Origin: Amphiscolops sp. MND2022
Taxonomy: Eukaryota
Direction of reading: 5' to 3'
Assembly: GCA_964187785.1 (NCBI GenBank)
Contig: OZ076414.1
Span: 48,732,001-48,796,000, forward strand
Length of the DNA: 64,000 bases
Shown: one piece after another, positions 18,701 through 47,884 of the stretch
Position numbering within the stretch: the first letter of the stretch is position 1
Layout of the letters: each line of letters starts with the position of its first letter
Made by a program: the position numbers and the translations under genes
The notes under the pieces: generated by a model
What the model was told of the DNA's origin: nothing
Databases searched by the model: none
The model's input: only the letters and a program-made list of their open reading frames with translations

Positions 18701-18731
18701 AGATCTTTTGAGGATGTGAGAGAGCTGAAAA
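18410..18731 (-). pseudogene. Decayed PC4-like ORF, copy 3
   Basis: Same protein without the frameshift but with several in-frame stops (NT*KNSEVTYINIKLI*KKEDQD*YRLQQRVGLTVKEFW*MVANVENI). Confidence 0.4.
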
Positions 18732-21700
18732 TCATGGTTGATTTCTGAAAGCTTTTGACTGGTGATTAAGCTGTGATACCGATGATCTCAAGACAAGAAA
18801 AAAATTAAACGAGAACATACTTGAAGTAAACCGAAGCTCTTGAGGAAATTTGAAAAACAGAGACCTTGTCGCAGACAAAAGAATGTTCAACTGGGACAAA
18901 ATTTTGACACCACCGAAATGGCTTCTTTTTTTTTCTTTTCCTAAAGTTGATGAACGTTTTGGAGCTAGATACTATTGCTTGAAACAAAACCAAGACCTCA
19001 ATAGTAAAACCATTTCCATCCGCTAGTTTAGAATGGATTTTTTGTTTTGGTCGAGCTGACCGGATGCATGATTGATATTCGATCAATAGATCTCAGTAGT
19101 AACTAACTGCTAATTGATGAAACAGAGCGACACGCTGTGTAACCATGAAAGCGACATCGGTCCTTTGTATTTGATGATTGTTTATTAACCAGTAGCTGCA
19201 AGAAGCGTGTCCCGAGTGGCATATAGATCTCCGTAGTTGCAAATTGCAGATTGACTAAACAGAGCGCCACGCTGTGTTATCTTGAAAGCGACGTCCGCCC
19301 TTTGTACTTGTGATGACTTTCAAACAGTAGCTTCAATAAGTGTGTCTCAGTGGCCTTTGGTTTTAACGTGAGTCAAAAAACCTGAAAATAATCACGCAAA
19401 CAGACTCTGCAGAGGGCGACGCTGGATACGCTCAAATGCGGTTCCGACACAGTATGTGTGAATGTTTATCGCGGCCGCTGATCTCAATCTGACTCTCTTT
19501 ACGGTTGCTTTTATAGCTGACAAATGTTGTCACTCTCATGTTGCTGAGATTGCATGACTTTTGAAAACAGCAAAGTATAGAATTCAAAACCATCCTTTTA
19601 ATTCTCGGCATCAAAGAAGAGAAAATTTTAGCAGAAAACGTTCACTCTGGAAAATGGGAAGTAAATCAAATTGTACAGCTCTATGCACTGTCAATTGCTA
19701 GAATATGTACAGCTCTAAACGCTGGGAGATACTTTACCGTTGAGCTATCGTGGTAATGATATAATGTTCGAGACAGTAGAGATCATACCCTTGATTGGTC
19801 ACAACGTTACATTCCTTAAAATCCTCATTAGTAGGAAGATGCATTCTGAACCATTCAATTCTTGATAGGGTAAAAACTCGGTGTCTCAGTTGGACTTATT
19901 CAAGAAGTACCTTTGATGACGAAGATGAGCGTAAGATTTACTTTCTTTTCATTCCAATGCAACCTTTTTCATAACACAAAGCTTCTCGCTGTCACATCAA
20001 TATGTAAACTTTGCTCCAACTTGTCAAGCAGTACTTTTTTTAGCTTGCAGGTAATAGAAAGGAAACCCCCAGGCTCTCATGACAGTTTTTTTGTAAAAGT
20101 TTCCAAAATGTCCATTTTTTCTATTATTTGAAAGCAGCTTAAATTCTCGGAAACATACAATTGGAGTGATGGAGTCATCATGTTTTTCGACTCATGTTTT
20201 CCGACCATCACTAAAAGACTTGAACACGATGAAATCTAGTTTCGATAGGCATATGGAATTTTTTCTCCAGTTAGGCGGAAACATTACAGGACTGTAGAGC
20301 CCGAGATGTTGGATTTGATATGAGGTTTGTTGTTGGATTTGTTAAAGTATCGATAGAGTTTTTCCAAAGTTTAGAAAACAAATTAACTTGAAGTATCTTC
20401 GCTAGATTTACCTGAAATGACCAGCGAGTAATTTGATCAAGTGCAATTGACTACTATCTGATGTACTGTTTGCCTAAAAATCCAGTATTAAAACTGACGC
20501 ACTGGTTGTAAACTAGACCTGCAATTGATTACACACTGGTACACTGAGCCAAAATATATTCAAGAATTGAGATGAGAAGGACGAGGGTTAGAAGTTTTGA
20601 TAGCGTAAAGTGTTCTTCTTGTAAACCCAAAACTCGTTGATTGATGATTTTACAGGGGATATCTTTGACCTCTTTTTCTATTATTCGCAATACTAAACGT
20701 CTGGAAGCTAAGAAATTGAGATGAATATTAGTGATAGACAGCTGACTGGTAAAGTCTTCCTTGACGGGCACACTAACCTCTCATTTACAGCCCAAAACTA
20801 GACAAATGAAAGGTTTAGCTGCTAAATTTCAATATTCATCTTCGCGAAAGGAGCTTTCTAATAAGATCTCCATTTTCTAAGACTTTTATGATCACGGTCA
20901 GAAGGTGTAAGTATGATATATTTGTCAATGATTACCAGATAATATGAGGCTCAATTGGACTTGATAAGCATTAGCCTTGCTTTTACCGGCTTTTCTTCTT
21001 GTTAATAGTTCTGTTGAGTCTCTGTTTGCAAGAAGAATGGAAGCAATGACTATAGTTATTCTTGATCGATGTCTGTTTTCTTTTCATAAAACAACTCATA
21101 AACATGACTTACGTAATTTTCATGGTGCAAGACAAGATGAACCAAGGTTTTCAGGGTCATAGAATTCTAAGTATTTCAACTTCTTTGCTCAGTATGGATA
21201 TGTATCAATGCGATAAATTGCTTCATGTCAAACTTTGCATAATGCGGCTTTGCATCCATTCATAGTTACTCAGTCACCGCTATAAAATGAGTTGACAAGT
21301 CATGGGCACTCTTGAATTTGAGTTTCGTTTTCTGATGAAAAACTCCCGGAAGAATCAGGTTTACAGAAAGAATTTCTCTAATAGTTTAATTTTAGTTGTC
21401 TTCCGCTGTCAAAAATTTGCTCCAAATTGCTTAAAACTCCAAGTTGAAGCAAGTTTTTGTTTTCTGTTCATTTTTTGAGATTTTACGTGTCCTGAAGAAG
21501 TGTATACTGGTACTTTTCCCCTCATTTTTGACAATTTCAACGCTTTTAACAAGATTTTTGAACGTTTCGCACCATTTCTGGGTTTTTGAAAAAGTTTTAA
21601 ATTTTTGATTTTTTTTGTATGTAGAGTGTGGAGGGGGGATGTGTTTACTTTTTTGGCTTTGTGTTGGATTTGTGATGTCAACGATGCGTTCCATCACATT

Positions 21701-22139
21701 TTTGTATGTTTCACACGTTTTCTGGGTTTTTTTGAAAAATTCCACTTTTTTCATCTAGAGTGTGGAGGAGGTGTGTTGATAAATTTTTTGTAAAATTTCA
21801 AATACCCCCCCTCCCAAGTTAAGCTACCGTTAATAAAAACAAACTACCAATGAAGTATTCGTATTACAAATTTTTATGTTACTGAGAAACAAAAAGTTAG
21901 TTTTGGATAAAAAATTAGCCAGTAATCTGTGTCTGAAAAACTTCTGTGCCTCTTAAACAATTTTTAAAAACTCCAAAAATGCCAAACTGCATGGCGGCCT
22001 GTATTGACCGGTAACAGGTTGCGTTTTTGTTCAAAACGAGCTTGTTGGGCCCTGAGTGCGGCCTTCATACCTACCTGTGTGATATGGTCGAAAAGGAAGA
22101 AAAAAGACCATTCTTTCCAACAATTAGTTTGAGTTGTAT

Positions 22140-24158: not shown

Positions 24159-24989
24159 ATGTCGGACATTCAAAAAGACATCGAATCGTTTGAAGACCCC
24201 AAAATACGAAGGGTTCTGCTCCAACTATATGGAAATTTACTCGTCAAAGAAGAAGAAATTATTGTGTTACAAAGCCGCGTTACGGAGCTGGAGACAAGGG
24301 TGTTGGAGAATGAGAAGTATATGTCAAAAGACTGTTTAATTTTTGAAAACATGCCCAGAACAGATGACAGCATGACACTATCCCAACAGGTTTGCGAGTT
24401 TTTAAAGATTTATCTTAATCACAACACCAACCCTGCAAATTTCAAGGCGTGTCACGAACTTGGTCGCGGAAAAGGTATTTATCCTCCTGCAGTCATCGTA
24501 AAATTCATATACTTTGGTGACAAAAATGAGATTTTCCTGAGAAAATCATGGCTTGCACGAGCGAGAAACCCAAAAAATGGCCGCCCAATTTTCATCAAAG
24601 AGAGACTCCCAAAATTTCAAAAAGAGTTAAAAGAGCATGCGGAATCAATGGACATTGTCACGACTACGAATAACTGTAACATCAAAGTTTTTACCAAAAC
24701 CACGGATGGATCCTTCAAAAGTGTCACTGTTAACACAAAAAAAGCTATTAACGATATAAAGAGTGAGGCAGTGGTAAAACAAAGAGCAAGCAGTGGTAAA
24801 ATGTACAACAAGCCTGCAGACCCAAAAACGCCAGAAAGAGATAAAGATATCGATGACAATAATTTATTAAAAAGAGTAGCAAAAAGGATACGAGAATCCC
24901 CTGGTGATGGAGTAGCCGTACTAAAGCAATTTTGTTTGGACACCCGAGCTAATATGGAAGAGGAAACGATACCCAAAGGAGACTCATAA
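24159..24989 (+). CDS. LINE ORF1 protein (coiled coil + RRM-like + CTD), 276 aa
   Basis: Motif LETRVLENEKYMSKDCLIFENMP matches the ORF1p 'LE..SR..NLII.G.PE' pattern. PPAVIVKF and IFIKERL segments. Lies upstream of ORF2. Confidence 0.8.
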   Translation: MSDIQKDIESFEDPKIRRVLLQLYGNLLVKEEEIIVLQSRVTELETRVLENEKYMSKDCLIFENMPRTDDSMTLSQQVCEFLKIYLNHNTNPANFKACHELGRGKGIYPPAVIVKFIYFGDKNEIFLRKSWLARARNPKNGRPIFIKERLPKFQKELKEHAESMDIVTTTNNCNIKVFTKTTDGSFKSVTVNTKKAINDIKSEAVVKQRASSGKMYNKPADPKTPERDKDIDDNNLLKRVAKRIRESPGDGVAVLKQFCLDTRANMEEETIPKGDS

Positions 24990-25114
24990 ATTGCAGTCAA
25001 ATTTAAAAATCTGAAACAAAGTAACTATAGCAAACGTTCCATTTAGGCAGTGAAAAATACAAAATAAAGAATTTGACTGCAATTTCGGTAACACCGCCAA
25101 CATCAACTCTTTAA

Positions 25115-27943
25115 ATGAATCTAACATCTACTGAGAACCAACAACATGCTTTCCAGACTTTTCTTTTTGGTTTAAATATACGTTCACTAAGACATAACTT
25201 TGAAGAATTGGAATTACAGGTGGAGGAATATTTACCTGAATTGATTTTTCTAACCGAAACATGGCTCACAGAAAGCGACCCACTAACTCATTATAATATA
25301 AATGGTTATCAAGAGATAGAATCGAAACCTAGAATTACAGGGATCCGTGGAGGTGTAGCTTTCTACGCTAAAGATGAAATTGCGTACGAGGTACTGGAAT
25401 ATGAAAGTGAACTTGAATGTCTCATAGGAACTTTCACGTTTAGCAAAGGCAATAAGAAAAACTTTTGTGTTGTCTATAGGCCAGATTCCATACTTTACAG
25501 TAAGTTTCTTGAATTAATGGAATCGCTTCTTAGTTTCTTAAGGTCACAGAAAAATGATTGCATCATATTCGGCGATTTTAATATAAATACACTTATTGAA
25601 AACTCTGAATCGATAAACTACACAAATCTTTTAGCAGCCTACGGGTTCAAAATACAAAACTCCGAACCAACACGTGTCACAAGTACGACGGCAACTTGCT
25701 TAGATCACATTATTTCCAGCAACGAGATCAATACAAAAACAGTGAAAATAACAATCAGTGACCACTACGCGATTGAGACTGATTTATCATGGCTAGGAAA
25801 ACAAAATAAAAGAAGTTCGGATAATAATTATACACTTGTTAGAAATCTCAATCATATCAAGAAAAATAAAATTCTTAATTTCCTTTTCCTTCTGGATCAG
25901 AAACTACGCCAAATCAATGAAAATGCAGACGTTGATACTTATGTAACTAAAATAATTGACTGCATAATTAACTGTCTTGATCGCTTTGCGCCAGAAAAAC
26001 CACCTAGTGAAAAGAAACATTCACCTTGGATAAATAATAAGATTAAAAACCGCATTCAAAAACGGAACCTTTTGTTTCAAAAATGGATTAAGGATCCTAG
26101 TGAACAAAATCGTCAAGCCTTAAAGAACTTGAGAAATGAGATTAGAGGACTAATACGGAACGCTAAACGCGAGCAAAACTTCAAAGAACTAGGCTCTAAT
26201 CCTTCATCCAAAACGATTTATAAGAAATTAAAATATAAAAATGTTCAAAAGCAACAAGTCCACGGATCCCTCGATGCAAATAAAATGAATAAACATTTTG
26301 CAACCATTGGTCAAACTCTCTCTTCAAACATTCCTCACACTGACTTCACAAGCAATATAAAAACTGTGGAGAATAGTATGGTTCTGAATAAAACAAATAT
26401 TGATGAAATAACAGCTATTCTAAAGAAGCTCAAAAACAAACGGAGCACTGGTCCCTCAGGCATAAGCAATGAAATATTAAAACTATGTTCCCCTGTTATC
26501 GAGCCATATATATGCAAAATTGTGAACAAATGCATAGAGGAGGAAACATTTCCTGAGTGTCTGAAGGTGGCAAAAGTAATCTCACTGTATAAAAAAGGCG
26601 ATAAAACAAATCCCGAGAACTATCGTCCCATAAGCCTCTTGAGTCCAATAGGCAAAATAATTGAAAAAATACTTCATAAACAAATGAATAAGTATTTTAC
26701 CAAATATAATTTATATTCGAAAAATCAATTTGGATTTCGCAGTAAAAGGAGTTGTAATCACGCGGTAGCTGAATTAACGGATTATATAAGGAATGCAATT
26801 GATGAACGGCGCTCTGGCAGCGCTTGCTTTATTGATTTAGAAAAGGCATTCGATACACTTGATCATTCTATCCTCTTGCAAAAGCTATATAGATACGGCT
26901 TCAGAGAGCCAATTTTCAACATCATCAAAAATTATCTTTCAAATAGGAAACAATATGTATTACAGGATGGAAAAAAATCGGATGTTCTAAGTATAAACAC
27001 TGGTGTTCCACAAGGTTCTGTTCTCGGACCATTTCTATTTCTCGTTTACATTAACGACTTACCAAAGGAATGCAATCTGAGCATGATAACATTATTCGCA
27101 GATGATACAACCGTCTACAATATTGGCCAAAATACATCTGAGGAAATTTGCAATGATATCCAAAATCTTAGGAACTGGTTTAAAGAGAATAAACTAACTG
27201 TCAATATAGGAAAATGTGAGTATGTTTGTTTCGGTCGTGCTCAACCTCTTAGCGAAGAAGCTTTTGGCCAGAGAATTTCACTAAAAGATCATTGTAAATA
27301 TCTTGGTGTCACAATTGACGAGAAACTCAATTTCAAAGAGCATATTAAATACGTAACAAAGAAACTGAATAAATTTTGTGGTTTGATGTATAAGGTAAGG
27401 CACATATTTCCCGCGAGATGTCTCTTACTGTTTTACAAAACCATAGCTAAACCAATAATCAAATATGGCCTAATGAATTATGGTGCAACTGCAAAAACGA
27501 ACTTGGATCCTATCGAAAAAGCGCAACGAAGGATATTACGGGCAATTTTCTTTAAGAAGCAAACAGACTCACTAGAAAATGTGTATGCGTCACATAACAT
27601 ACTGACAATTCATGAAACCTATATTGCTGAACTCGTATGTGAATTATTTCGACAATTGAGGGGTAATTCGCCGTTTGACTTTGTGGCCGGTAGTTTCATA
27701 CCGCCCGATATAAACACCCGCAGAAGAAAAAGAGGTTTACTGAAAATAACTTTCAGCAGAACAGAAACTAAACGGCGATCGTTAAAAAATTCAATTGTGA
27801 AAACGTACAATTGGTTGAAAACGCTCGATCTTATCCCATCAAATATTAAAAACTTAAGTGAAAATGCAACAAAAAACCTCATAAACGGTATTGCTCATAA
27901 TTATGTTTCGAACAACAGAGACTTGTTCAATGTTTATTTTTGA
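25115..27943 (+). CDS. LINE ORF2 protein: apurinic endonuclease + reverse transcriptase, 942 aa
   Basis: APE motifs LNIRSL, LTETWL, GGVAFY, GDFNIN, LDHI, SDHY. RT motifs NYRPISLL, QFGFR, FIDLEKAFD, GVPQGSVLGP, FADD, KYLGV. Confidence 0.97.
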   Translation: MNLTSTENQQHAFQTFLFGLNIRSLRHNFEELELQVEEYLPELIFLTETWLTESDPLTHYNINGYQEIESKPRITGIRGGVAFYAKDEIAYEVLEYESELECLIGTFTFSKGNKKNFCVVYRPDSILYSKFLELMESLLSFLRSQKNDCIIFGDFNINTLIENSESINYTNLLAAYGFKIQNSEPTRVTSTTATCLDHIISSNEINTKTVKITISDHYAIETDLSWLGKQNKRSSDNNYTLVRNLNHIKKNKILNFLFLLDQKLRQINENADVDTYVTKIIDCIINCLDRFAPEKPPSEKKHSPWINNKIKNRIQKRNLLFQKWIKDPSEQNRQALKNLRNEIRGLIRNAKREQNFKELGSNPSSKTIYKKLKYKNVQKQQVHGSLDANKMNKHFATIGQTLSSNIPHTDFTSNIKTVENSMVLNKTNIDEITAILKKLKNKRSTGPSGISNEILKLCSPVIEPYICKIVNKCIEEETFPECLKVAKVISLYKKGDKTNPENYRPISLLSPIGKIIEKILHKQMNKYFTKYNLYSKNQFGFRSKRSCNHAVAELTDYIRNAIDERRSGSACFIDLEKAFDTLDHSILLQKLYRYGFREPIFNIIKNYLSNRKQYVLQDGKKSDVLSINTGVPQGSVLGPFLFLVYINDLPKECNLSMITLFADDTTVYNIGQNTSEEICNDIQNLRNWFKENKLTVNIGKCEYVCFGRAQPLSEEAFGQRISLKDHCKYLGVTIDEKLNFKEHIKYVTKKLNKFCGLMYKVRHIFPARCLLLFYKTIAKPIIKYGLMNYGATAKTNLDPIEKAQRRILRAIFFKKQTDSLENVYASHNILTIHETYIAELVCELFRQLRGNSPFDFVAGSFIPPDINTRRRKRGLLKITFSRTETKRRSLKNSIVKTYNWLKTLDLIPSNIKNLSENATKNLINGIAHNYVSNNRDLFNVYF

Positions 27944-30713: not shown

Positions 30714-31099
30714 AATTTGTTCCGAAAAATTGAAGGAAAAATAAGTCGAGTTAGCCAGTTTCAAAATGCTGTAAAAATGTGTAGAATTGAATTTGAGTGC
30801 TAGTTTTCGCCCAATCGACATATTTTGACCCAAATGAGAGATTTAAACTATAAAATCGAAAATCGAAGCCAAAAAATTTTCAATTCCCCTCTTACGTCCC
30901 ATTTTGGATTCCTTTTTCAAAGTCAGTGTATATTTGGACTTTATTCTTTGTTTATCGTATTTAACTTGATATGAACTCCATATTTGGGCTACGTGGGTGT
31001 CTCTAGGACCCATGAGGACTATTTTTCAACTTCACTGAGTATTTCACAGCAAATAACATGTGTAAATGTATGCCTTAATCTTGCTTAAATGTATGCCTT
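30714..31099 (+). repeat. BEL 5' LTR, left piece
   Basis: Matches 55316-55701 with 2 substitutions by eye. Lacks the first 14 nt (TGTTGGCGCCTCAA) of the 3' LTR. Confidence 0.85.
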
Positions 31100-32858
31100 T
31101 GTCGCAGCCCCAAAGATGCGATGGGTCCGGAGTGCATCAGTAAAAGATAACCAACGACTTCGACAAACATTCTAAATACTGATATTTTTGTTTCTTTTCT
31201 CTTCATTTTTAACAAGTCATGTAAATTCTAGGTATATTTTGTATATTTGGATCATTGTGAGATTTTCCTGAGCTGTTATTGAAAGATAATTCATGTAAGA
31301 AGGCGCTAAAATACATGGTTCATTACAAATATTAGTGTAAAACTCTCTATGCTATGAATTCCGTGCTTATTATGCGTCAATATGCCGTAAATGTTGTGAC
31401 GTATAAGCGTCAAAAGTCATTTTTAGAATATTTTATATGCGTCATCATACGTAAACTTGACTCACGCATATGCGGCATTGTACGTTTTTAACTACAAGAC
31501 AATATACGTTTTTGGATAAACTGCATATGCGGCAATATGCGTTTTTACAATGCAATTATACACTGTTGAGCAGTTCTTATGTTATCGTATGTACGTCAAC
31601 ATGCGGTTTTCGCAGTGAAAGTATGAACGAATTGTGCAATATGGATTATGGAGTGTATGTGCTATTGTGCGTTATTGAATGTTGATGCTTACATGTTGTA
31701 TACGCTATCCTGCAGTACAGGGAATACCGCATATACGTCATTATGCATTTTTAGCTGTACTCTCATCATTTTGAAGTCATGTAGCGTTTAATTCATCTAA
31801 TGATACTTGAAACGTATTATACAGCGTCTAGCCTTGTTTTCCTAGGATTTTCACGGTCCCTTGATAATATTTAGGGTGTCATTGTAGTGTGATTTAAAGG
31901 ATATAAACAGAATGATGTGATTTTGACGTTATACTGTTTTTAGCTCTTCAAACTTTGAAGAGCTAAAAACAGTATAACGTCAAAATCACATCATTCTGTT
32001 TATATCCTTTAAATCACACTACAATTATTGAAATACAATTATTGAATAATGATACCTGTAAATGTGATTGTCATCCTTTTTGTATTTTTTGGAAAACTGA
32101 AGGGACCATTCATTCGAATTTTATCTCTCCCATCAAGCAGTTGCTCACTTTTCAACCTGGTCTTTTGAAAGCAGTCTTTTTGACTAACATTGTTTTATCT
32201 CCCGAATTGTCTTTAGATAATTCTTTTGAATAAATTCAAATTCTTCCCCAACAGCCAAAATATCGTTTTCCTTTGAGAAAGATGGGGAACAAAAGAAGTA
32301 GAAGGTCCAGGAGATTGGAGACCCCGTCTCCAGAAAGAGAACTCAATGAAACACAGGTAGAAACATCAACCCAAGGTAATATTACTTTGACAAATGCTGA
32401 ATCTAATACCCATAGAAACCTTGACAATGATGAACTTAGGAACCAATTAATTGAACCTAGCCAATTAAGCAATGAAATACAAGCGTGGACTGAGAATTTT
32501 GAACAAAAGAACAATGATAGAATAACAAAAATGAGAGAAGAAATGGAGAACAAACTAGATGCAATCCTGAAGGAGATAAAATCTAATAAAAGTGTATCAA
32601 CAGTAACAAACCCAAGATCTGAAATGGATGATATACAAAACATACAGCCTTCGGGATCCAAAACTAATAGGTCTATTGGAGTACACGCATCTCACATCTA
32701 TAACTCAGACTCAGAAAACGACGATTATCCTCTACAAGCTTCTAAAATGGGAGACCTGAAACATCCTGCTAAACCATTGTTCAGATGCGAATCTGATGTA
32801 GATGTAACTATACATTCGGACGAAGAGTCCGACGCAGAGGAAGTGGAGGATTATCACA
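31100..32858 (+). repeat. Gypsy 5' LTR (1759 bp)
   Basis: TGTCGCAGCC...GATTATCACA. About 99% identical to 46215-47879 (~15 substitutions by eye), plus one 94-bp insertion. Confidence 0.95.
31881..32025. repeat. Perfect 145-bp palindrome (72-bp arms, 1-nt loop) present only in the 5' LTR
   Basis: 31881-31952 is the exact reverse complement of 31954-32025. The 3' LTR has only the left arm. Confidence 0.95.
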
Positions 32859-33979
32859 TGGTGACAGGAGCTAACAAACATCTCCATAGACAAAGTTCAC
32901 AAAACTCCCAACCCTTAAACGATACCATTGGATCCCGCGCAGATCGACAAACATCAACAGCCATAAAAACGCCTTCTGACCCAGTAAACCAAATTGCCCA
33001 AGCAATAGAGAAACTAGCAAACAAAAATGCACCACAATCACTGTTTCATCCAAAAAACACATTGACTTTCAATGGAAAAAATGAGAAAAATGAGAAATTC
33101 GAATACTTCGAAGACTTGTTCCACACTACGCTTCGTATGCAGCCAAATCTAACCGAGGAAATGAAAATTAATCACTTCCACGCTCACCTTAGGGGTTTAG
33201 CCTTGAAAACCTTCGAAAACATACAAAGAACTCCAACCACAACCCTAGAGGACATCTTGAAGGTCTTCCGTAGAAAATATGTAAAACCAGAATCCAGTGC
33301 TTCGGCAAAGCACCGATTTAACAGACTTTTCTTTGACCCCGAAAACCAAAAACTACCAGACTTCCTCGAAGAGCTCCAAGAAAGTGCTGAAAAAGCGTTT
33401 GGAGACAATGCACATCCGATGATAGAGAATTTACTCTATGCAAAGATGCCCCCTCACCTTAAAAAATCCATCAATCAGACCTATCTTGAGAATGGGAGTT
33501 ACGAACAGATCGTAAAACATCTCGAGAGAGAGATGGAACTAAACGGCTTGGAGGCAGACGAACCGTCGGTCAAGACCCAAATGACCGTCACCAAAAAAGA
33601 ACAAAAGACTGACAAACCGACCAAAAAACAAAATGAAAACCCTAAAACGCAAACCCCAAAAACAGTACCCAACAAGACACTTAAAAATGACCAATGCCGT
33701 TATTGCAAAGAGGCGGGCCACATGATGGCCAACTGCCCCAAATTAGCAAAACGGCGTAAACTTGAAGAAGATCCGGATGCAGAAAAATGTCAAAACTGCA
33801 ACACACCCGGGCATGAAGAGGAAAACTGCTACTTTGGTGCCAATATGGAAAATCGTCCATCGAAATGGAACCTTACTGACGCTCAAAAGAAAGTCATCGA
33901 AGCTTACAAACAAGCTCGAAAACCTATTAAACCAAAAATAGAACGACCTCAACAATCCTCTTCCAAGGATTTAAACTAG
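32282..33979 (+). CDS. gag: Gypsy Gag, 565 aa from the first ATG, starting inside the LTR
   Basis: Two CCHC knuckles (CRYCKEAGHMMANC, CQNCNTPGHEEENC) and a retrotrans-gag-like core. ORF is open from 32273. Confidence 0.92.
   Translation: MGNKRSRRSRRLETPSPERELNETQVETSTQGNITLTNAESNTHRNLDNDELRNQLIEPSQLSNEIQAWTENFEQKNNDRITKMREEMENKLDAILKEIKSNKSVSTVTNPRSEMDDIQNIQPSGSKTNRSIGVHASHIYNSDSENDDYPLQASKMGDLKHPAKPLFRCESDVDVTIHSDEESDAEEVEDYHMVTGANKHLHRQSSQNSQPLNDTIGSRADRQTSTAIKTPSDPVNQIAQAIEKLANKNAPQSLFHPKNTLTFNGKNEKNEKFEYFEDLFHTTLRMQPNLTEEMKINHFHAHLRGLALKTFENIQRTPTTTLEDILKVFRRKYVKPESSASAKHRFNRLFFDPENQKLPDFLEELQESAEKAFGDNAHPMIENLLYAKMPPHLKKSINQTYLENGSYEQIVKHLEREMELNGLEADEPSVKTQMTVTKKEQKTDKPTKKQNENPKTQTPKTVPNKTLKNDQCRYCKEAGHMMANCPKLAKRRKLEEDPDAEKCQNCNTPGHEEENCYFGANMENRPSKWNLTDAQKKVIEAYKQARKPIKPKIERPQQSSSKDLN
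32859..32870 (+). promoter_or_regulatory. Gypsy primer-binding site, tRNA-Leu-like
   Basis: TGGTGACAGGAG immediately follows the LTR-terminal CA. 11/12 match to the Leu PBS TGGTGTCAGGAG. Confidence 0.7.
33970..33976 (+). promoter_or_regulatory. -1 ribosomal frameshift heptamer T TTA AAC at the gag/pol junction
   Basis: Correct X XXY YYZ phase just before the gag TAG. The -1 frame (FKLETPRLS...QVETINIQ) is open into the protease ORF. Confidence 0.8.
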
Positions 33980-34047
33980 AAACGCCACGCCTTAGCAATC
34001 GAAACGCCCAAATAACAGAAAAACCACAAGATGACTGGCAGCATCAA

Positions 34048-34746
34048 GTGGAAACAATAAATATACAACTCAAACAACTCACCACAGAACCAGAATACAC
34101 ACCCCAAACACATAATCACTCCGACAACGATGAACCTCCACAGGAATCATACTATGAACTTATGAGAGATGCTCCTGATAAGTATTTTTCAGACAATACT
34201 CAAACCCCCCCTCTACCTACAGATAAACCACCAGCAAATGAACACCCGAGTACTTTTTCTTGCACTGAACAAAAACAACCCCTTCTAGATGAAGATATCC
34301 CAAACCACATCCAGTTTGATCAGGAACGCAACCTGTCATATCTACCTATGTCAACCTCGCTAACATTGAAACGAAAACGCCATATGTACTATATGCCAAT
34401 GGACTTCGAAAAACTCACACTTGACGGACTCATCGACACAGGAGCCCTGACTAGTGCAATCTCCGAACAAGACCTTAACAAAATCAAATTAATTGCAAAT
34501 GAAGCAATAAAAGATACTGGCCCCCCATCAAACTTTCAAATTATGGTGGCTAACGGTCAATTAGAAGTACCCATCGGCACAGTTTTACTTGAATTCGAAG
34601 TGGCTGATTTCATGTTACGAGAAAATTTCATTATCATGAAAAACCTACCAAACCCACTCATTGGTCTCTGCTTTCTCCGCAGAAACAATGCAGTTTTTGA
34701 TGTCACACAAGGCATCCTAACTTTCCATACCTCTCAATGCAACTAA
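34048..34746 (+). CDS. pol: Gypsy Pol N-terminal part, aspartic protease
   Basis: LIDTGA catalytic motif and LIGLCFL flap-end motif. Separated from the RT frame by an apparent 1-nt deletion near 34727. Confidence 0.9.
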   Translation: METINIQLKQLTTEPEYTPQTHNHSDNDEPPQESYYELMRDAPDKYFSDNTQTPPLPTDKPPANEHPSTFSCTEQKQPLLDEDIPNHIQFDQERNLSYLPMSTSLTLKRKRHMYYMPMDFEKLTLDGLIDTGALTSAISEQDLNKIKLIANEAIKDTGPPSNFQIMVANGQLEVPIGTVLLEFEVADFMLRENFIIMKNLPNPLIGLCFLRRNNAVFDVTQGILTFHTSQCN

Positions 34747-37700
34747 AACCAGATACGCAGGTAACAATGCGTCAAGCGACGCCTTTATTTGCTGAAAATA
34801 CATACACACTACAACCAGGTGAATCCCTCGCCATAGCTAGCAGAATGCCCCACCTGTTAGACCATGATGCAACAGGAATAGTCACACCTTCACCACAATT
34901 CGAAAGCCACGACAGCATTTTCATCACATCGTCACTTAGTACGGTTAACAATAATGCTATCGGGTACCAAATAGTCAACTTCTCAGAACTTCCATATACA
35001 ATAGTTTGCGACACCCATTTAGCAGACTTCAAAATCCTCACACCAGAACAAATCAAACATATACAACCTGTAGATCCAGCGATGTTGTCATTCATGATAC
35101 AGCATGAAGAAACCACCGAAATCTACATAAATGAATTACTGAAAGTTCCTTCACAAAACCCCGAACAAGAGTCTTATTGGTTCCCAACACCAGAAGATCC
35201 AGGAGACCCTACAACCTATACCCCAATCCAACAACGAACCTACAATGAACTCCTTGAGCTTAAAGAACTCGAACAACTCAACCCACAAGAAAATGAAAAA
35301 TCCAGGAAAACTTTCCCTTCGAATTTCGACTGGACCGACACAACGCTCAACCCAGAAGAACAGAAACAAATTGAAGAAATCCTCATTGAATTCCATGACA
35401 TTTTTGCCAGACATCGATTCGACATTGGCACCAATCGTGAATTTAAGGTTAAGCTTACACCAAATGATGACCGACCAGCATACAGTCAAAGTTTACCAAC
35501 ACCAATCAACCTTAAAGATGACATTACGGTAGAACTAGCACTTTTACACAAATATGGAATCATAACAACCCTACCTTTCTCAAAATACGCTAGTCCAATT
35601 TTTGCACAACGCAAACCGAACGGACGCCTCAGACTGCTAGTGGATCTTAGAAAAATCAACAACTTAATCACCGAAGACTACATCAACAATAACCACCCGG
35701 TAAGCACATTATCGGATGCAGCACAACATATGGCAGGAAAGAAACTTTTCTGCAAATTAGACTGCTCCCAAGCTTACCACTGCCTCCAAATGGCAGACTA
35801 CCAATCTATCCACATGCTTGCTTTCAACTTCGCAAGCCGAACTTTTGCTTACCGCAGACTCGCTCAAGGGCTTAGCAGATCTCTTTCAGCCTTCTCAAGC
35901 TTCATGAGGGAGTACCTTGACAAGGCGATCAAGGCCGACCAATGTGCACAGTACGTTGATGACATTGGTATAGCAGCAAATGACTCAAAACAACTATGCG
36001 CCAACATAAGGACGGTCTTTGAATGCATCCGAAATGCTGGTTTAAAACTCACAATGTCCAAATGTCATTTCGGAGTTAAACAAGTCGACTTCCTAGGCCG
36101 AACAATTACACCCAAAGGCGTGGCCCCTCAAGCTGACAAAGTCAAAGATTTCTTATCGAAATTGAGATTCCCTAAATCCAAAAAAGCACTCCAAAGGTAT
36201 ATAGGATTCCTAAACTGTTTCCGCAATTACATCCCGAGACTATCTGAACGTCTCTCTCCATTCTTTAAACTCCTTAAAGAAACCTCCAAATTCTATATAC
36301 CCACTAATTTGGTCGAAGATTTCACCAACCTCAACAAACTTCTTGAAAACTCATGCCAATTAGCATTGAGACAACCCCTTAAAGATAAACAACTCATAGT
36401 AATGTCTGATGCAAGCTTCACAGCAGCAGGATATGCTATCATGATAGAAGATGATCCCAACCAAAAACTCCAGTCCAAGCGCAAAACCTATGCTCCCATA
36501 GCATTTGGTTCGAAAACATTCAACCCAACACAAACAAAGTTATCGATCTTTGCGAAAAAATTCCTTTCCATCTACTTTGCTTTTGTCGAATTTGGACACC
36601 TTATGTGGGGGAGCAAATTCCCCATCATTGTGTTCACAGACAACAGAGCGGTTACCCGCTTTTTCCAAGCAAAACTTATTCCTCCAGCACTCTGGAATGC
36701 ATGTGATTATGTCCTGCAATACAATTTTGTCATTGCTCATGTTGCTGGTTCAATGAACACTGCGGCGGATTTCCTGTCCAGAACGGAAGTCAACCCAGTC
36801 GAAAAACTTGAAATGAGCATAAGAAATGATATACAAACGAAAGCGATAGAAGTCAATATACAATCCTCAGGCATCGTAGAAGAAGAACAAATTTACATCC
36901 TCCTTGATGATGAATTTGATGAAAACAAACTTTGGGAGGAAAAACAAAACGTGAGAAATCAGGCTCAAAATGAAACTCACAATGACCCAGAAAACAATGT
37001 TACTGAACTTCAACAATTCCACAAACCAACATCCGGCTTAAACACATGCTCTGAAGGACATTTCCGAGACAATGCCAGAATCAGACTCGAACAAAACAAT
37101 GACATTGTTCTTAGAAATCTCAGAGCTAAAATCGAAGGAAACCCTTTTGATGAAAACGACTTGGCATCTGACTACAGATACCAACATTACCTCCAAAACA
37201 TAACCAGAATTGAAATCAAGCAAGAGGTTCTTACTCGCAAATACTACACAGACACTGGAACCACTTCGCATTATCAAATTCTGCTACCAACACAACTCCT
37301 AGAAGAACTACTTCAAGCCTTACATGGCCACAACTCAAACCATCCAGGTATCACAAAGATGATACAAGAGGTGAGGCAGAAATACTACTACCCGTGTATT
37401 GCAAAATACAATAAAAAATGGGTGACTAATTGTCAAACCTGCATACAAACCAAAAGGATCAATAATGACCCCCTCAGGACCGAACTACTTAATTGCCCAG
37501 AATGGGACCTCGGCCCTGAAGACATTCTCCAAATGGACATCCTACCAAACCTTCCACCCAGTGGTGGATACGACCACATTATAACAGCAATTGATGTTTT
37601 CTCGCGATACTTGTTTGCTTACCCAGTGACTCGTATAACCGCAACATCAGTCGCTCGAGTAATAATGGACATTTTATGCAAACATACATACCTTCCAACA

Positions 37701-38846
37701 ACCATAATCACAGACCTTGGAACACAATTCAATGCCCAAGTAACCCACGAAGTAACAGCAGTCCTAGGTGTTGAGATTAAACATGCAACAATGAAACACG
37801 CTCAAACAATAGGACTCCTGGAAAGAATACATGCTTCAGTAAAAACCCAACTTAAAGCAGCTACTGGAGAATTCCGACATAACTGGCATAAATTTCTACC
37901 ATTAGCGGTTCTAAACCACAACACAACATATCACGCATCGCTTGGTTGCGAGCCTTCACGAGTTTTTCACGGCCGCATACCACATAACATACTGGACTAC
38001 AAGTTAGGATATAATCCTAATCCGAAATACCAGCCGCAAACTGATGTCGCAGAACAAATACAACGAAGAATGCGAATATTACTAGACCAGACCAAAAAGA
38101 ACATCATGCAATCCTATCTTAAATATAAAGCTTATTATGATAGGAAGGCCAAGGCCTCACCGCTGGAAACAACGGACTACTGCTATATTCTTAATCCGAA
38201 GGCCGACACACAGGCAACGAAAATACCATTCCGTGAATTCAGATGGCAGGGTCCTTACAAGGTTGAAAAAGTCCTTCCTAACAACAATTACATAGTTAGG
38301 AGACTAGGAACAAACAAAACACAACTCTTACACCGAATTCGGTTGAGGAAATTTACACCGCACGCACTTTTAGCTGACATTTTTGTCCGAGAATCCGATT
38401 GGCAAAAAGATGATCAAATGCCAGTGGCTCATGATGACTTATATGCTCAATCATGGAACACAAATTTTGGACCTAATCCCTTCGAGGACAGCCCTCCGGA
38501 TCATACACAGAACACTGATGATATTGAATACGTATCTGTTGATGCACCTGAAAATAACCACCCTCCCTCCCTCGAATTTCCAAAAAACAGTGGGGGGAGC
38601 CCAGTGGAACAGTCCACTGAACGCGAAGAAGATAATTATGATGAAATCCAGCAAGAAATCCAAGATAATGATACAGAAATCTCCCAAACAACCCCAAAAG
38701 AAAATACACCAGATACACAATTACAAAAAACTCCAGAAAATTCACAAAATACCCCATTGCAAGAAGAACCCATAAATACTCGTGGTGAAAAATACAACTT
38801 ACGCCCTAACCCTAACCCAAACTTCTCAGACTCTTACAGATATTAA
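34737..38846 (+). CDS. pol: Gypsy Pol: RT, RNase H, integrase
   Basis: RLLVDLRKIN, KLDCSQAY, YVDD, SDAS, FTDN. HHCC (HGHNSNHPG...CQTC), D-D-E (QMDI, TDLG, LERIH) and the GPY module. Confidence 0.97.
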   Translation: MQLKPDTQVTMRQATPLFAENTYTLQPGESLAIASRMPHLLDHDATGIVTPSPQFESHDSIFITSSLSTVNNNAIGYQIVNFSELPYTIVCDTHLADFKILTPEQIKHIQPVDPAMLSFMIQHEETTEIYINELLKVPSQNPEQESYWFPTPEDPGDPTTYTPIQQRTYNELLELKELEQLNPQENEKSRKTFPSNFDWTDTTLNPEEQKQIEEILIEFHDIFARHRFDIGTNREFKVKLTPNDDRPAYSQSLPTPINLKDDITVELALLHKYGIITTLPFSKYASPIFAQRKPNGRLRLLVDLRKINNLITEDYINNNHPVSTLSDAAQHMAGKKLFCKLDCSQAYHCLQMADYQSIHMLAFNFASRTFAYRRLAQGLSRSLSAFSSFMREYLDKAIKADQCAQYVDDIGIAANDSKQLCANIRTVFECIRNAGLKLTMSKCHFGVKQVDFLGRTITPKGVAPQADKVKDFLSKLRFPKSKKALQRYIGFLNCFRNYIPRLSERLSPFFKLLKETSKFYIPTNLVEDFTNLNKLLENSCQLALRQPLKDKQLIVMSDASFTAAGYAIMIEDDPNQKLQSKRKTYAPIAFGSKTFNPTQTKLSIFAKKFLSIYFAFVEFGHLMWGSKFPIIVFTDNRAVTRFFQAKLIPPALWNACDYVLQYNFVIAHVAGSMNTAADFLSRTEVNPVEKLEMSIRNDIQTKAIEVNIQSSGIVEEEQIYILLDDEFDENKLWEEKQNVRNQAQNETHNDPENNVTELQQFHKPTSGLNTCSEGHFRDNARIRLEQNNDIVLRNLRAKIEGNPFDENDLASDYRYQHYLQNITRIEIKQEVLTRKYYTDTGTTSHYQILLPTQLLEELLQALHGHNSNHPGITKMIQEVRQKYYYPCIAKYNKKWVTNCQTCIQTKRINNDPLRTELLNCPEWDLGPEDILQMDILPNLPPSGGYDHIITAIDVFSRYLFAYPVTRITATSVARVIMDILCKHTYLPTTIITDLGTQFNAQVTHEVTAVLGVEIKHATMKHAQTIGLLERIHASVKTQLKAATGEFRHNWHKFLPLAVLNHNTTYHASLGCEPSRVFHGRIPHNILDYKLGYNPNPKYQPQTDVAEQIQRRMRILLDQTKKNIMQSYLKYKAYYDRKAKASPLETTDYCYILNPKADTQATKIPFREFRWQGPYKVEKVLPNNNYIVRRLGTNKTQLLHRIRLRKFTPHALLADIFVRESDWQKDDQMPVAHDDLYAQSWNTNFGPNPFEDSPPDHTQNTDDIEYVSVDAPENNHPPSLEFPKNSGGSPVEQSTEREEDNYDEIQQEIQDNDTEISQTTPKENTPDTQLQKTPENSQNTPLQEEPINTRGEKYNLRPNPNPNFSDSYRY

Positions 38847-39031
38847 AAAATACAAACAATTAACACTTTTTCAGTACCCCTCTTCAATTCGGGAGTCCTT
38901 GTTTTTTTCTTTTCAATAAGCAAGTACGCTCCTGACAAGTAAATAATGGAACGACTTACTAAATCACAAATAAATACAAATTGTGATACAAATAACTAAA
39001 GTTCAATCGAACAATAAGTTGAATTCCAACG

Positions 39032-42000
39032 TTAGTTTTTCTTCGACTTAGAAGACTTTGGCTTGGTGGCTGCAACAGACTCACTAAAATCGTCTTCAGA
39101 GCATCGGGCAACGGACACGCTAAGTCGCCCAAGGGAGGGCCCAGGAGAAGGAGTACTGGCATTACTGGTCGATCTACTGAGACTAGGAGTGGTCCCACCA
39201 GACTCTACAACAACTTTCTCAGCTTGTAGGACAGACCTCTTGTAGGCAGCTTCAAGTTTGCCCCGTAGAGCAGTTCTTCGCGGGCCACTACCCTTGAGGA
39301 AATTCCAAATTGAAAATTTTTTGTCAATCAACAAGTCCTGACCTCTGCCCAACAAGCGAAATGCTCGCCCAATTGAACGCTGATCTCTGTACAAACTGGA
39401 AACATGCGGAACGCTCAAGTAAGATTGCTGCAGACTAGTCACGCACGATTGGAACATCTCTTTATCAGATGATAATGTTGGGACTGGCACTTCAAAATGA
39501 TCAACTTTGCCAACAAATGGAGGCAAGCAGAGACAAGCGTAACGAAACAAATGAAGCAGGTCCGGTCGACTTTGCGTTTCATAATGTGAGGCAAGGTATT
39601 GCACCCAATTGTCGTCCTTAACCACAGAATCAGCCCGCAATTTGGTAGCCAGAGAACGATATTGGCTGACACACTTGACTTTATCGCTAGGAGAAAGCCA
39701 TCCTGAATTAACGAAATAGGTTGTGAGCTTTTCCACTGCACTAACGTAGTGCCTCTCTGGTCCTTCTACCATAACAGCAAAATCGAATGACGACAATCCT
39801 CTAATCAGATTTGAATTGACAAGCTCATGTTTCAGCAGAATTTTGCAAAAAGATTTGCAAAATGCAATCGATTGATCAATGAATTTGCCCGGCTGGGGCA
39901 ATTTGCTAGCGATCACTAATTTATGATAGTCAACATTCAAAACGAATTCCGAAGCAGTTTTGAAGGGAAGGTCGGTTCGATCCAAATCAAGGCACAAATA
40001 ATTGTCCCAATCAGAAATGCTTCCCAAAGTTTGATCGGGTAGAATATTCTGCAGTTGGCAATACAGAAGCACAGCAAACTTGTTGAAAAGTCTAAATCCA
40101 CTATCCTTTTGACCTTCCAATTCGGAGAACGCTGAATTATCTAAAACAAACAACATGGAATCCAGTTAAACATTCCCCTGAAGTCAGATATACGAAAAAT
40201 ACAACAAGAAGAACGTCGAAAAGATATACTATACACTATTCTCCATGTTGATTTACGAAGAATATACGTCATTAGAAGGAAATTTTTATCAAATATACGC
40301 CATTACACACTTTAAGTTATGCCGAGTATACGTTATTATACGGAACTCGCTGCAAAGCTTATACGAACACGTGTATAAATACTATACGTCAAAGTACAGG
40401 AAGAAAGATGGTGAGTGTACGTCATTATACGCATCTTACAAGAAAAGGTATGACGTCAACGATTGGAATGAATTGTAATGTCTATACGCTATCATGCGGA
40501 ATGAGGCGTGATGACTAAACGTCATTATGCGGATGCAGCAGTATGACGGACGAGTCACAATGGTAATGCATCATTATACGGAATGAGGTGTGATGACTAT
40601 ACGTCATTATGCGGATACAGTAGAACGAAGAACAAGACATCAGTGGGATGCATCATTATACGGAACAAGCTATAAAAACTATACGTCATTATGCGGTTTC
40701 AGCATGACAGAGAGCAAATTACGGCGTCGTTACACAGAACGAGTTACAATGACCATACGCCATTATGCGGAATACGAATAACTTTGCGAAGCTAGCTTGT
40801 AATGCTAAACTAAAAGGAAGATGCACATATATGCAGATTAATCTTGAATGATTACACTGAAATATGCGGAATTAGCCTTAGAAAAGCAAAAATTGCAGTG
40901 TTTTGTTCGCACCGGACAAAGCAGGGCAGTAGTAACGGTCAAAGCAACAAAATGTGGAAAATGAGACGCAACTACTAGGAATTAGGAAAGAAATTGGACG
41001 TTGGGAAGTTAACACACATAATATGCAAAAAGTTAGTCAGGTTAAAAAACTGTCCCGAAAAGACTAAATATATAAAGACAACTCACAATGGTCAATCACA
41101 CATCGAATGATGAATAGTCGGGCCAGGTAGGCTGTGTCCAGCTTGAAACATTCATCAAGGGTGTTTGGCTAAAAGCAGTGGGGATTGAAATAAATTGAAA
41201 CTCGGACATTTGTAATACGTGATAAAGAAAACCGACCTCTCTCATGTGGAAGCGATAAATTGGCAGTCGCGAAACCTGATTGAGATGCTGCAACACATGG
41301 TCCCAGTTCGCAGAAAGCTGTTCAATATTGATGGACGCCTCATGGAGCGAGTAGTCGAGTGTGATGACACACCAAAAACGAAAAATTGGTATTATTTTCA
41401 GTATACTAACCAAGACAAATGCTCTCAGGAAAATACCAACTTTGTGTAAGGTCGGCAATGAGTGGAGCCAGTCTCGATCGAGAGCTGTACGAAGCTTCAT
41501 CAGGAGGTAGTCGAGTATCGACCGGAAGTCGTGCCTCTCGATAATTTGGGTTGTGGGCTTTTCAAGAGACTTTTCAAAATCAGCAGGTCCATATGTTTTG
41601 ACAACTTTCGGTCTTCGGTTCCCGGGCAGTGTCGAAGCCAAGCAATTGCCTAATTTGTCTCCACCCCCAAGGACACTGATGCAAGAAGGAGGTTGCTCGA
41701 GTAGGCTCAGAAACGATGAAATTAAATCCAAAATGCGTCGGGGAATCAAAACCCCTCGGGGGCCAGTACCGATGCAGACACGGTAGAGTACATTTCCTGT
41801 CCAGAAGCACACGAAGAGACGAACGTGAGTTGGGTCATGCTGGAAGATGATTGAATAGACCCCAGAAGATGAAATTGCAGTCACGCAATAAATTACCAGC
41901 TCTCGAAACATGTACACCAAGATTCCCTGGGAACAAAATAAAACTCAGAAACTCAAATGACAATTTGATCATGGGTAGAATTTCCTGGTTGAGAACGCTA

Positions 42001-43784
42001 ACTTAAATTGGAAAGTAGGAGAATTTACATACAAAAATGCGATGTTCGCTCCAGTTGAGTGATGTAGCTTGTTGAACACTCGGGAGGTGTCGTACCAACT
42101 CATCATGGACTCCAGTCAGACTATTTAGATGGCCTCCAAACCGCAACCCGAACTCAAGGATGCAAATTTGCGACAAAACTTCTTCGGAAGTGCTGGTATG
42201 ACTGGCTAAATCAGGTACTGAGGTTTGGTTTACCAAGGGCCGGCAAGGATCCAGTTGGGGCGCAATCGGGTAGGTGTCTTTCGCCTTTCTTTTAGCCTCG
42301 CTGAGAGGCACTCCTTGCAGTTCTTTCTCTTCCCGATCGAAGAGTGGCATTCCAGGAATTTCCATGCGAATCCTGTGTTCCTTTACTAAGTGGCCCTCAG
42401 TACGGTAGTGGGACATTAATTCTAAAACCCCTCTGCGCATAAGGGATAACTCCACATTGCAGACCCTACACCACCATTTGTAGGGTGTTTTCTCCTTGTC
42501 AAGGGGCCCAGTAGCCGAAAACTTTAAGACAGGATGTTTCCTGAACATATGGGTTTTCAGGGAGTATTTAGGTCTTTGCCTTTTCCCTCGCACAAAAGAA
42601 GATCCAGCTGTTGGAGGGTAAGGCACCATAGGCAGCTCGGAACTGTTTGCTGCATTGGGATTGGGGACATTCGTTGTGTCTCCTTGGTTCCCCACGGGTT
42701 CGTTTGTGACCATTAATGAAATCGGTCGGTCCCACTCGGCTTCCTCACCATGCAGAAGAGCAGGAGGTAATCGGTCTAGTACCCTAGACAAGGCAAGTAT
42801 CTCATTTCTCGTGATGCTGATTCTCCCTGGATTCACTTGAGCCATCATCTCTCCTTCATCGATCACAAGGTTTTCAGTCGGGGTATTAGTAAGATTAGCT
42901 TGAGCAATTGGTTCCGGTTCAGCAATATGGTGAGGAGGGGAGGTTATCTCTTCTTCGTGAGAACGATCAAGGATGTAACGACTAAAAGGAGAAGACATCA
43001 TGTGGGAACTTCCAGCTGCCATAATCCCTTCCAGCAATTCTTGGGATATTTCCCCAGGAAATAAATCCATTGCAGGTGGAGGAGGAGTGTCACAACTTTG
43101 AGTTTGAGTGTTCTCGCTTTGTTCTGCTCCGAGGGGCTGTTCTACGTGATGCTCAATCCCTTCACAAGTTTGATGGAGCACAACTACCGACGAATCATCG
43201 TCTCGCACGACAGAATCTGGCACCCCTTCTTCTGCTGGGGGATCTTTTGGGACGAGAGTTTTCTCTGCAGTAGAATGGGGCAATACAGACGTGAAAGGAC
43301 CAGGATTGTTTGTCTGGATAGTTGGGGAAATGACTTCCAATGGGGTATATATCTTGGTAGGGGATCTTCCAGGAGACCTCTCTGTTGCTCCAAGTTCGAC
43401 TAAAACAATCAAACCGTCACCGTCTGAGTAACTCGGACTGGTTTCAAAACAAATGATCTCTGTTTTAGCATTACCGGAAAAGAAAGCAGAAATACAGCTA
43501 ATTCGGAAGTCACAAAATCCGAACCGGAAGTTGATAAGCTTCCGCGAAGAGAAATTTAGCTATTGTAGTACTCTAGCTTCAAAATAGATGTTAGCCTGGC
43601 CAGCTTTTCATCTTTTAAAAATTACCGATCGAAAAAATTTGGACAGAAACAAAATTCACTCGAAAGAGTAAAATGAGTCAAACTTACCAGGAGTAGCGGT
43701 AGTCGGAGATTTGTAGCCCCAAGAAGTGAAGTGTTTACGAGACAGCATATCCTTCCGGGATTTCCGCCTTGAATTAGAATCCAT
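39032..43784 (-). pseudogene. Four-exon antisense gene in the Gypsy element: BED-like C2H2 finger + hAT-transposase-like C-terminus (~1170 aa, lightly disrupted)
   Basis: Predicted exons 43784-43688, 43474-42033, 41926-41087 and 40177-39032. Donors GTAAGT, GTATGT, GTGAGT. AG acceptors for introns 2 and 3; CG for intron 1. All junctions keep frame. Stops at 41098-41096 and 40168-40166. Motif WWCRVC-x16-H-x5-H. Confidence 0.75.
40240..40880 (+). repeat. Array of TATACGTCATTAT(G/A)CGG motifs, including an 82-bp periodic core
   Basis: CATTATRCGG at 40523, 40572, 40605, 40654, 40687 and 40761 (82-bp period), with many partial copies around them. Confidence 0.85.
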
Positions 43785-44259
43785 CTTTCGAACAAATGAG
43801 TGTAAAGGGTGTTGAAAGTACAATAAATAATTCAGAATGGTAACAATTAAATACGGGAGTTAAAATGAGTGAAGAATTGAAATTAAATTTAGGATCCTTG
43901 GATTGAGGGGAGTACGAGAAAAGACTAAATAACTAGAAACTAACTATGATATACGACGAAAAGACTGATTAAAAAAGTTTAAAATTAAACAGATTGCAGA
44001 AACTGGTGAAATAATCAAAGGCGTGGCGTAACAAAACGAGGCAAAGAAGCAAATGAAACATGTATTTATTGAATATGCTTGTTCAAACTGAACGCTGATT
44101 GGTCAATTAAAATGTCATTCACCACTGCCAGGGTGATAGATTGATTAATTGACAGCCACAAATTACTTCCCACTTATGCGCAAAGCAGAGATGGTTAGAT
44201 GAAGTAATATATAAACTTCAATACATACAAGCACGCGGCAGTATACGATTTAAGCTGTG

Positions 44260-44485
44260 ACGAACATACGTCAGTATACGAACTACAGGACGTGAGTGAG
44301 CGTCAACGCCCATACCAAGCAATGATGAGCATACGGCATTATGCGGAATTACCATAGCCACGTGCAATACAATTTACAGAGCTACATGAGATTATGCGTC
44401 AACATGCGGATCAACTGCAGATGATTATACTGTAATATGCGGATTCACAAAGTGGTTACGCGGTAATATGCGGAATTACCATAGC
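44260..44485 (+). repeat. Second cluster of the (C/A)AT(T/A)ATGCGG motif
   Basis: CATTATGCGG at 44337, AACATGCGG at 44401, TAATATGCGG at 44433 and 44464. ATGCGGAATTACCATAGC occurs twice. Confidence 0.75.
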
Positions 44486-45208
44486 GGAGTATAAAGAGGT
44501 ATTCTGAACCACACGAACGGCAACAGAACAGACCGAACAATTATGTTACGTAATACGATGCACGATAGCCACACACAACGGTGTTAGAGTGGGTATTGGA
44601 AAGAAACGAAAGGTGACTGGTTACTCAATGACAATGGACAACTCCCCCAAACAATTACTGATTACAATGCGCTTTTAAAGTAAAACTTACAAACAAAAAC
44701 GTATAAACTGATGTTTATTTCAATATGGTTGCTTGAATTTTTAGTTTCGAACATCTTGTTGGGAAAACTGAATTTTAGTCATGTAAGATGATTATATGTT
44801 CCTTTTATACTATATTTTCATATAACGGAAGGAGAGTCATGTAATCCTTTGATGATGATCATAATTTTGTTTCTTAGCTATTAAACTAAATGAAACACCG
44901 CCAAAGGGTTGAGGTGAAGAAGACATCATCCTGAGAATAGCCTTAAATGGAATTTGTTTACGTTGAGTTACAAGGAATCACGACAATTTTCTTGAATCCA
45001 AATCCTAGCGTCAGGGTAGAGACCAAATAAGGAAGCAGTGAAACCCTGAGAATCATGACACTCAACTTTTTCGCGGGTTTTGTCGAAGAAAAGGGAGAAC
45101 TGAAAAAGATATCACCATATGGTCTACAATAACTTAAAGTTCAGTTGTCTCTAATTTCAAAACTTTGCCTTTTGCTGATCCTTAATTCATAAATACATCT
45201 TCAAAATA

Positions 45209-47879: not shown

Positions 47880-47884
47880 GCCTT

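Follow-up and report, generated by a model that had tools for sequence, protein, structure and literature searches.

In a large group of Ty3/Gypsy elements, the frame of the structural gene gag starts 375–590 nt inside the long terminal repeat (LTR) and reads on through the LTR end and the primer-binding site (PBS). Judged by its pattern of substitutions, the 3' part of the LTR is protein-coding and under purifying selection clade-wide, and it very probably encodes a translated N-terminus of Gag. Across a whole Ty3/Gypsy radiation, in other words, purifying selection acts on an LTR that can contain one third of a structural gene.

The window analyzed here, a stretch of 64,000 nt from Amphiscolops sp. 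MND2022 (contig OZ076414.1), contains a 16.8 kb element on the plus strand (31100–47879) with TG..CA ends, flanked on both sides by the target-site duplication (TSD) GCCTT (31095–31099 and 47880–47884). Self-BLAST delimited a 5' LTR of 1759 nt (31100–32858) and a 3' LTR of 1665 nt (46215–47879), which differ at 16 of 1670 compared positions. The 5' LTR has the family length of 1665 nt plus a local inverted duplication near 31954–32041; the 89-nt addition (31881–32041) is largely an inverted duplication of 72 nt, which creates a palindrome of 145 nt adjoining a TATA-like site. With its pol order, TG..CA LTRs and TSD, tRNA PBS, and Gag with capsid and CCHC knuckles, the element is a member of Ty3/Gypsy (Metaviridae). 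The pol region (34162–38846, plus strand; two ORFs in this copy, split near 34740) encodes protease, reverse transcriptase (RT), RNase H, and integrase in that order (Pfam: protease ORF first, then RVT_1 at 292–457, RT_RNaseH at 527–658, and integrase at 851–1017). Ty1/copia membership was rejected because the order protease-integrase-RT is not that of the window element. A stretch between protease and RT (34737–35040) had no Pfam match and by eye resembles a dUTPase-like insert.

Antisense accessory ORFs (39032–43070, minus strand) lie between pol and the 3' LTR, two of them with weak relatives in a metagenome contig (L197:3643–5737). The site before the 3' LTR is of the AAACACGCAGGAC-type, rich in purines without forming a clean polypurine tract; the tract is clean in L197. 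A sense ORF of 349 aa (45209–46258, plus strand) has its final 44 nt inside the beginning of the 3' LTR, and its C-terminal end, F-x-F-K-x-A-G-L-S, was kept in all four families checked. Coding sequence thus seems to cover the plus-strand primer site and the left LTR end as well. The element is inserted in the 5' LTR of a BEL/Pao element (30714–31099 and 47880–48636 match 55316–56453), which spans 30714–56453 and has LTRs about 98–99% alike. Elsewhere, the window holds a large inverted duplication (8945–22132; about 86% alike over 4.2 kb, plus further pieces) and a LINE (24159–27943, plus strand) whose two ORFs are open, the first of 276 aa and the second, encoding endonuclease and RT, of 942 aa.

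The gag frame across the LTR end and its copies

The gag ORF (32282–33979, plus strand) encodes 565 aa, with the capsid at about 255–425, CCHC knuckles from 471, and TTTAAAC before the stop. From its ATG to the end of the 5' LTR there are 577 nt (192 codons plus 1 nt; 32282–32858), which agrees with the first-pass annotation of a gag ORF that starts about 580 nt inside the LTR and reads through the PBS. These codons comprise a basic tip (1–12), predicted disorder, a helix (60–105), and an acidic tract, and the GCCTT duplications on either side of the element place all of them within the LTR, as had been proposed for the first ~192 codons. The junction given as EDYH-MVTG reads CAC A|TG GTG ACA GGA (H-M-V-T-G), in which an ATG at 32858 is formed by the final LTR base together with bases of the PBS. 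The PBS (TGGTGACAGGAG, 32859–32870, plus strand) is read as M-V-T-G and is complementary at 12 of 12 positions to the 3' end of tRNA-Leu(CAG) plus CCA. The integrase end, the primer site, and the protein code overlap here. Among homologous proteins, 91 of 120 begin with MG and 116 of 120 carry MVTG.

The tRNA that matches the PBS is encoded by a tRNA-Leu(CAG) gene of the same genome, found by pattern search (ARAGORN called two of eight dispersed loci). The tRNA-Leu 3'-end pattern has about 1000 matches in the genome, many of them in a tandem array spaced 180–530 nt; the loci tied to this pattern are L031–L038 and G000:C8:35.587–35.634 Mb. At the other end of gag, positions 33961–33979 read GGATTTAAACTAG with the TTTAAAC heptamer, and KDLN precedes the stop in 23 of 24 aligned Gags; the heptamer is a likely -1 frameshift site into pol.

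As claimed from the letters, the frame is intact in both LTRs of the window element (L001, L018), and 3' and solo LTRs retain an open N-terminal frame. In the 3' LTR, the copy (47303–47935, plus strand) starts at ATG 47303, an in-frame TTG lying at 47294, and comprises the 192 codons followed by 18 read-out codons into the flanking BEL/Pao LTR. The first-pass annotation had presented this ORF, given as 47294–47935, as an example of fusion with flanking DNA. This part of its account shows no sign of being more than chance read-out: the 18 extra codons enter a BEL/Pao LTR and not unique host DNA, and across 92 LTR ends that lack an adjoining PBS the frame stays open for another 1–84 codons (median 10, mean 17), which is about the length expected from the stop frequency in AT-rich DNA (an estimate, not a simulation). 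The window's 18 codons are ordinary chance read-out.

Each solo LTR would be a promoter plus an open gene fragment, from which new genes or restriction factors could arise, a use of which we found no instance. One such use would be a built-in brake on copy number, with capsid-less Gag fragments, made from the first 190 codons in hundreds of 3' and solo LTRs and containing the coiled coil, joining and poisoning Gag assembly. We regard this idea as improbable. If true, the brake would grow stronger as solo LTRs accumulate and would need no internal promoter. It would be a structural analogue of the truncated Gag p22 of Ty1 and of Fv1-type restriction.

Purifying selection and recurrence of the boundary

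To analyze selection, 44 loci with a long intact gag (of 131 with a recognizable start) were clustered into 14 subfamily representatives that are 58–100% identical. The representatives are related and were picked for open gag frames, so counts of stops and motifs among them are not independent. Using a codon model on a fixed tree, we obtained an omega of 0.134 for codons 1–190 (likelihood-ratio test statistic 602 versus omega 1), and IQ-TREE gave 0.116 for the LTR-coded segment. The dN/dS comparison across family members that had been suggested as a check thus shows purifying selection (0.12–0.13 over 14 subfamilies). Constraint varies along the segment (0.021 for codons 1–12, 0.188 for 13–58, 0.080 for 59–105, and 0.165 for 106–180), with 0.154 for the linker after the PBS, 0.020 for the capsid, and 0.058 for the nucleocapsid as comparison. 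Pairwise omega was 0.06–0.17 in all eight pairs, and differences fell mostly at third codon positions in all four pairs (70 of 106 in L001/L030). Over eight pairs, 233 gaps were counted in the non-coding LTR versus 25 in the coding part; 13 of the 25 coding gaps and 39 of the 233 non-coding ones are multiples of three, a noisy test. Coding on another frame or strand was rejected, as the five other frames hold 3–33 stops in 14/14 representatives. Between families, divergence in the coding part of the LTR does not follow the course of non-coding DNA.

Within clades, the 19 copies of the P0178 clade carry 33 synonymous and 6 non-synonymous shared variants, and 49 and 64, respectively, among rare variants; the young P0124 clade has too few variants (5 synonymous, 2 non-synonymous). 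Among 30 loci from the DNA search, which were not selected for an open frame, the LTR frame is intact in 21. The suspicion that it might often be broken in young copies does not hold, given that it is retained in 17 of the 19 copies whose identity to the query is 98% or more. The five differences between the window's own two LTRs that fall in the coding stretch all alter residues, as expected for neutral change after insertion.

To determine how widely the boundary recurs, the genome was searched at the DNA level (41 matches from 40 scored candidates), and three further searches used N-termini from homologues of greater divergence (150 scored matches each). With 30 loci per search, 120 loci were taken, and 40 pairs lying 5–35 kb apart on one strand were scored for TSDs. 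Exact 5-bp TSDs surround the full repeat in 31 of the 40 pairs, which belong to four subfamily groups, and the ATG lies 550–580 nt inside. Of the nine pairs without an exact TSD, one matches on inspection, three are off by a single base, another is off by two, a further one turned out to be a solo LTR that is duplicated together with its TSD, and three were not scorable. The solo LTR with TSD CTTGC (L079, L078) is present twice, about 11 kb apart. At another locus (L013), an LTR has the 3' internal end at its left and a PBS at its right, as in tandem elements with a common LTR between them.

More distant Gags were recovered by a profile search of 1.84 billion proteins, and the motif H/D/N/Y-M-V/M-T/A was present in 13 of the 20 that have enough sequence before the capsid. 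For two distant clades the layout was examined in the DNA itself, at 24 loci per clade out of 150 scored matches. In the P0124 clade (capsid 64% identical), LTRs are 1728 nt long with TSDs in 5/5 pairs and the ATG 586 nt inside, and the similarity of its N-terminus to that of the window Gag is not significant. In the P0178 clade (capsid 49% identical), the repeat ends at the same junction 376–397 nt after the ATG in 3/3 pairs, a count that does not include TSDs since the LTR start lies outside the loci retrieved. For a third type, P0136, a search of G000 using its N-terminus as query gave no match. The metagenome locus L197, which has one LTR only, shows the purine tract, a TG start at 8173, an ATG at 9577, and the CA|TGG junction 388 nt later; from this single LTR, the layout probably extends beyond the Amphiscolops genome. 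Chance does not account for the layout, since the boundary is found in the same phase throughout four related subfamily groups as well as in two distant clades.

Predicted expression, role of the extension, and competing readings

Motifs in the leader suggest that transcription is likely to start about 170 nt before the gag ATG. An Initiator-like TCATTC (32110–32115, plus strand) would place the start 170 nt ahead of the ATG, at A 32112, and a DPE-like AGTTG (32139–32143, plus strand) lies at exactly +28 to +32 from it; both motifs were defined by the Drosophila consensus. TCATTC followed by RGWYV at +28 is exact in 7 of the 14 representatives, within 1 nt in 11, and absent in 3, and the pair sits 158–182 nt before the ATG in these related leaders. 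Exact spacing occurred in 90 of 7000 shuffles and in 65 of 131 loci. Scans of this kind have been applied to LTRs, for example in a preprint that deals with motifs in rover LTRs (10.1101/2025.01.02.631056). Across the 14 related leaders, the final 170 nt contain 4 ATGs versus about 23 expected for 160 nt, and stretches 200–900 nt upstream contain 18–33 each. All 14 representatives have A at -3 and G at +4 around the gag ATG. A rival promoter, TATAAATA, lies at 47017–47024 in the 3' LTR, 286 nt upstream of the ATG; read by eye, TATAAATA also occurs about 140 and 160 nt upstream of the ATG in the P0124 and P0178 clades. A transcription start downstream of 32282, which would conflict with a coding LTR, finds no counterpart in these motifs, since every promoter candidate lies before the gag ATG. 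No poly(A) hexamer is shared (AATAAA occurs at -53 in only 2 of the 14 representatives, and none is common to the coding part). Of the earlier statement that U5 is protein-coding, the coding nature of the 3' part of the LTR stands, but U5 should read R/U5, as no conserved poly(A) signal places the coding part in U5 rather than R.

AlphaFold2 with 73 sequences gave a poor model of the whole Gag (mean pLDDT 49, pTM 0.22), in which a helix of 45 residues (60–105; block pLDDT 73–93) is confident between disordered parts. Hydrophobic residues at 62, 73, 84, and 95 form an 11-residue repeat, a pattern typical of coiled coils. The basic tip (codons 1–12) is the most conserved piece of the LTR-coded part and is also present in the distant clades. 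No Pfam family was found for the N-terminal 192 aa, PDB sequences gave only zinc-knuckle matches at E<0.001, and the ESM Atlas search yielded no relative (one match at 0.78, below lead level). Gly2 occurs in 91 of 120 near homologues, with Ser or Asn at position 6; N-myristoylation as a clade-wide role was set aside, as Gly2 is not kept in the distant clades. Downstream, zf-CCHC and Ty3_capsid reached E<=0.01 in 68 and 53 of the 73 members, respectively (the window protein is below Pfam cut-offs), and Foldseek matched the modelled capsid part weakly to Arc CTD, PNMA2, and RSV CA (best E 0.049, none at E<=0.001). From its composition, the extension is predicted to be a matrix-like targeting and oligomerizing part.

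Under the reading we prefer, the RNA would start about 170 nt before the ATG at 32282, and use of this ATG would yield one Gag of 565 aa, the first third of it written in R/U5. The basic tip would likely serve RNA, membrane, or nuclear targeting, and the 45-residue helix, set between disordered linkers, would likely form a coiled coil that helps Gag molecules gather. During reverse transcription, the coding stretch would be copied into a minus-strand strong-stop DNA of considerable length (about 750 nt, provided that transcription starts where predicted) and would in this way end up in both LTRs; an N-terminal ORF in 3' and solo LTRs would then be a by-product of this copying. Unusually long strong-stop DNA is a prediction of the layout.

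The ATG at the junction (32858), which the first-pass annotation offered as an alternative start, is very unlikely to be the sole one. Gag made only from there would leave the upstream frame untranslated or kept for RNA or DNA signals, in keeping with a junction Met in 116 of 120 homologues, with synonymous sites that are more conserved near the junction (0.81–0.86 at codons 181–204), and with a capsid and zinc knuckles that all lie downstream of 32858. However, the Met follows automatically from CA|TGG in that phase, cis signals would not give an omega of 0.02–0.19 and third-position bias over 190 codons, and the upstream ATG has the better context behind an ATG-poor leader. Use of both starts, with a long Gag from 32282 and a short one from 32858 that arises through leaky scanning or is made from an internal transcript, is compatible with our preferred reading rather than exclusive of it, and has a small but appreciable chance of being correct. 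In every clade the junction ATG shares the gag frame, and it carries G at +4; Ty1, moreover, makes its truncated Gag p22 from a subgenomic RNA (PMC4551931). Several in-frame and out-of-frame ATGs between the two starts nevertheless make leaky scanning unlikely, and nothing marks an internal promoter.

The remaining readings question what the LTR frame is. An accessory gene in its own right, with expression from the 3' LTR as for MMTV sag or HIV nef, would fit a frame that is present and open in 3' LTRs, but there is no stop in the LTR, the frame is continuous with the capsid in every clade, ORFs from 3' LTRs end after a random 1–84 codons, and the promoter-like motifs just before the ORF place it downstream of U3; we hold this highly improbable. 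The chance that the repeat was mis-called, being in truth a short LTR followed by duplicated gag sequence or else a product of faulty assembly, is close to negligible. Even though 9 of 40 pairs lack an exact TSD and LTRs of 1.5–1.9 kb are long, exact and differing 5-bp TSDs flank the full repeat in 31/40 and 5/5 pairs, the PBS abuts the repeat end, and one solo LTR (L079/L078) is flanked by a TSD of its own.

Comparison with known systems

Mammalian Arc and foamy-virus Gag have N-terminal coiled coils, which are not known to be encoded by an LTR. Both resemble the window Gag in having a helical segment of oligomerizing type ahead of the capsid, but neither matches its N-terminal part in sequence or structure. 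Coding sequence inside an LTR, and hence present twice, is shared with MMTV sag and HIV nef, which lie in U3 and are separate genes expressed from the 3' LTR. The window LTR ORF differs from them in forming the first part of gag and in lying beyond the predicted promoter; a U3 accessory ORF of the sag/nef type was rejected for want of its own stop inside the LTR.

Ty3 and other Ty3/Gypsy elements (Metaviridae) share with the window element TG..CA LTRs, a 5-bp TSD, a tRNA PBS, a Gag with capsid and CCHC knuckles, and the order protease-RT-RNase H-integrase. The 5' PBS segment of Ty3 adjoins the 5' UTR (PMC4974528) and gag of soybean Diaspora starts 873 bp after the LTR (PMC1142308), unlike the window gag, which starts 577 nt before the LTR end. 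The first-pass annotation's premise that gag normally starts downstream of the PBS agrees with Ty3 and Diaspora but omits Ty1, whose PBS is in GAG (PMC4974528). No long case of gag starting inside an LTR was found in the literature covered, which was also searched for long LTRs, included passages of PMC3601003, PMC1142308, and PMC3383448 and lay apart from most subscription papers, Repbase, and GyDB. Annotating such elements as a non-coding LTR with a coding interior would shorten these Gags by 125–195 residues.

The closest likeness is to Ty1 of Saccharomyces cerevisiae (Ty1/copia, Pseudoviridae), in which the gag frame also begins before the PBS and reads through it, with about 40 nt of GAG in the LTR. 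According to PMC4974528, the Ty1 PBS lies inside the GAG ORF at RNA nt 94–104, so GAG starts before the PBS, and fewer than 94 nt of RNA precede it, compared with 376–586 nt of coding LTR with a predicted helix in the window clades. The primer is tRNAiMet in Ty1 versus tRNA-Leu here, and the domain order protease-RT-RNase H-integrase of the window element is unlike that of Ty1. The principle is known from Ty1 over a short stretch; here, it extends over a much longer one and occurs in Ty3/Gypsy.
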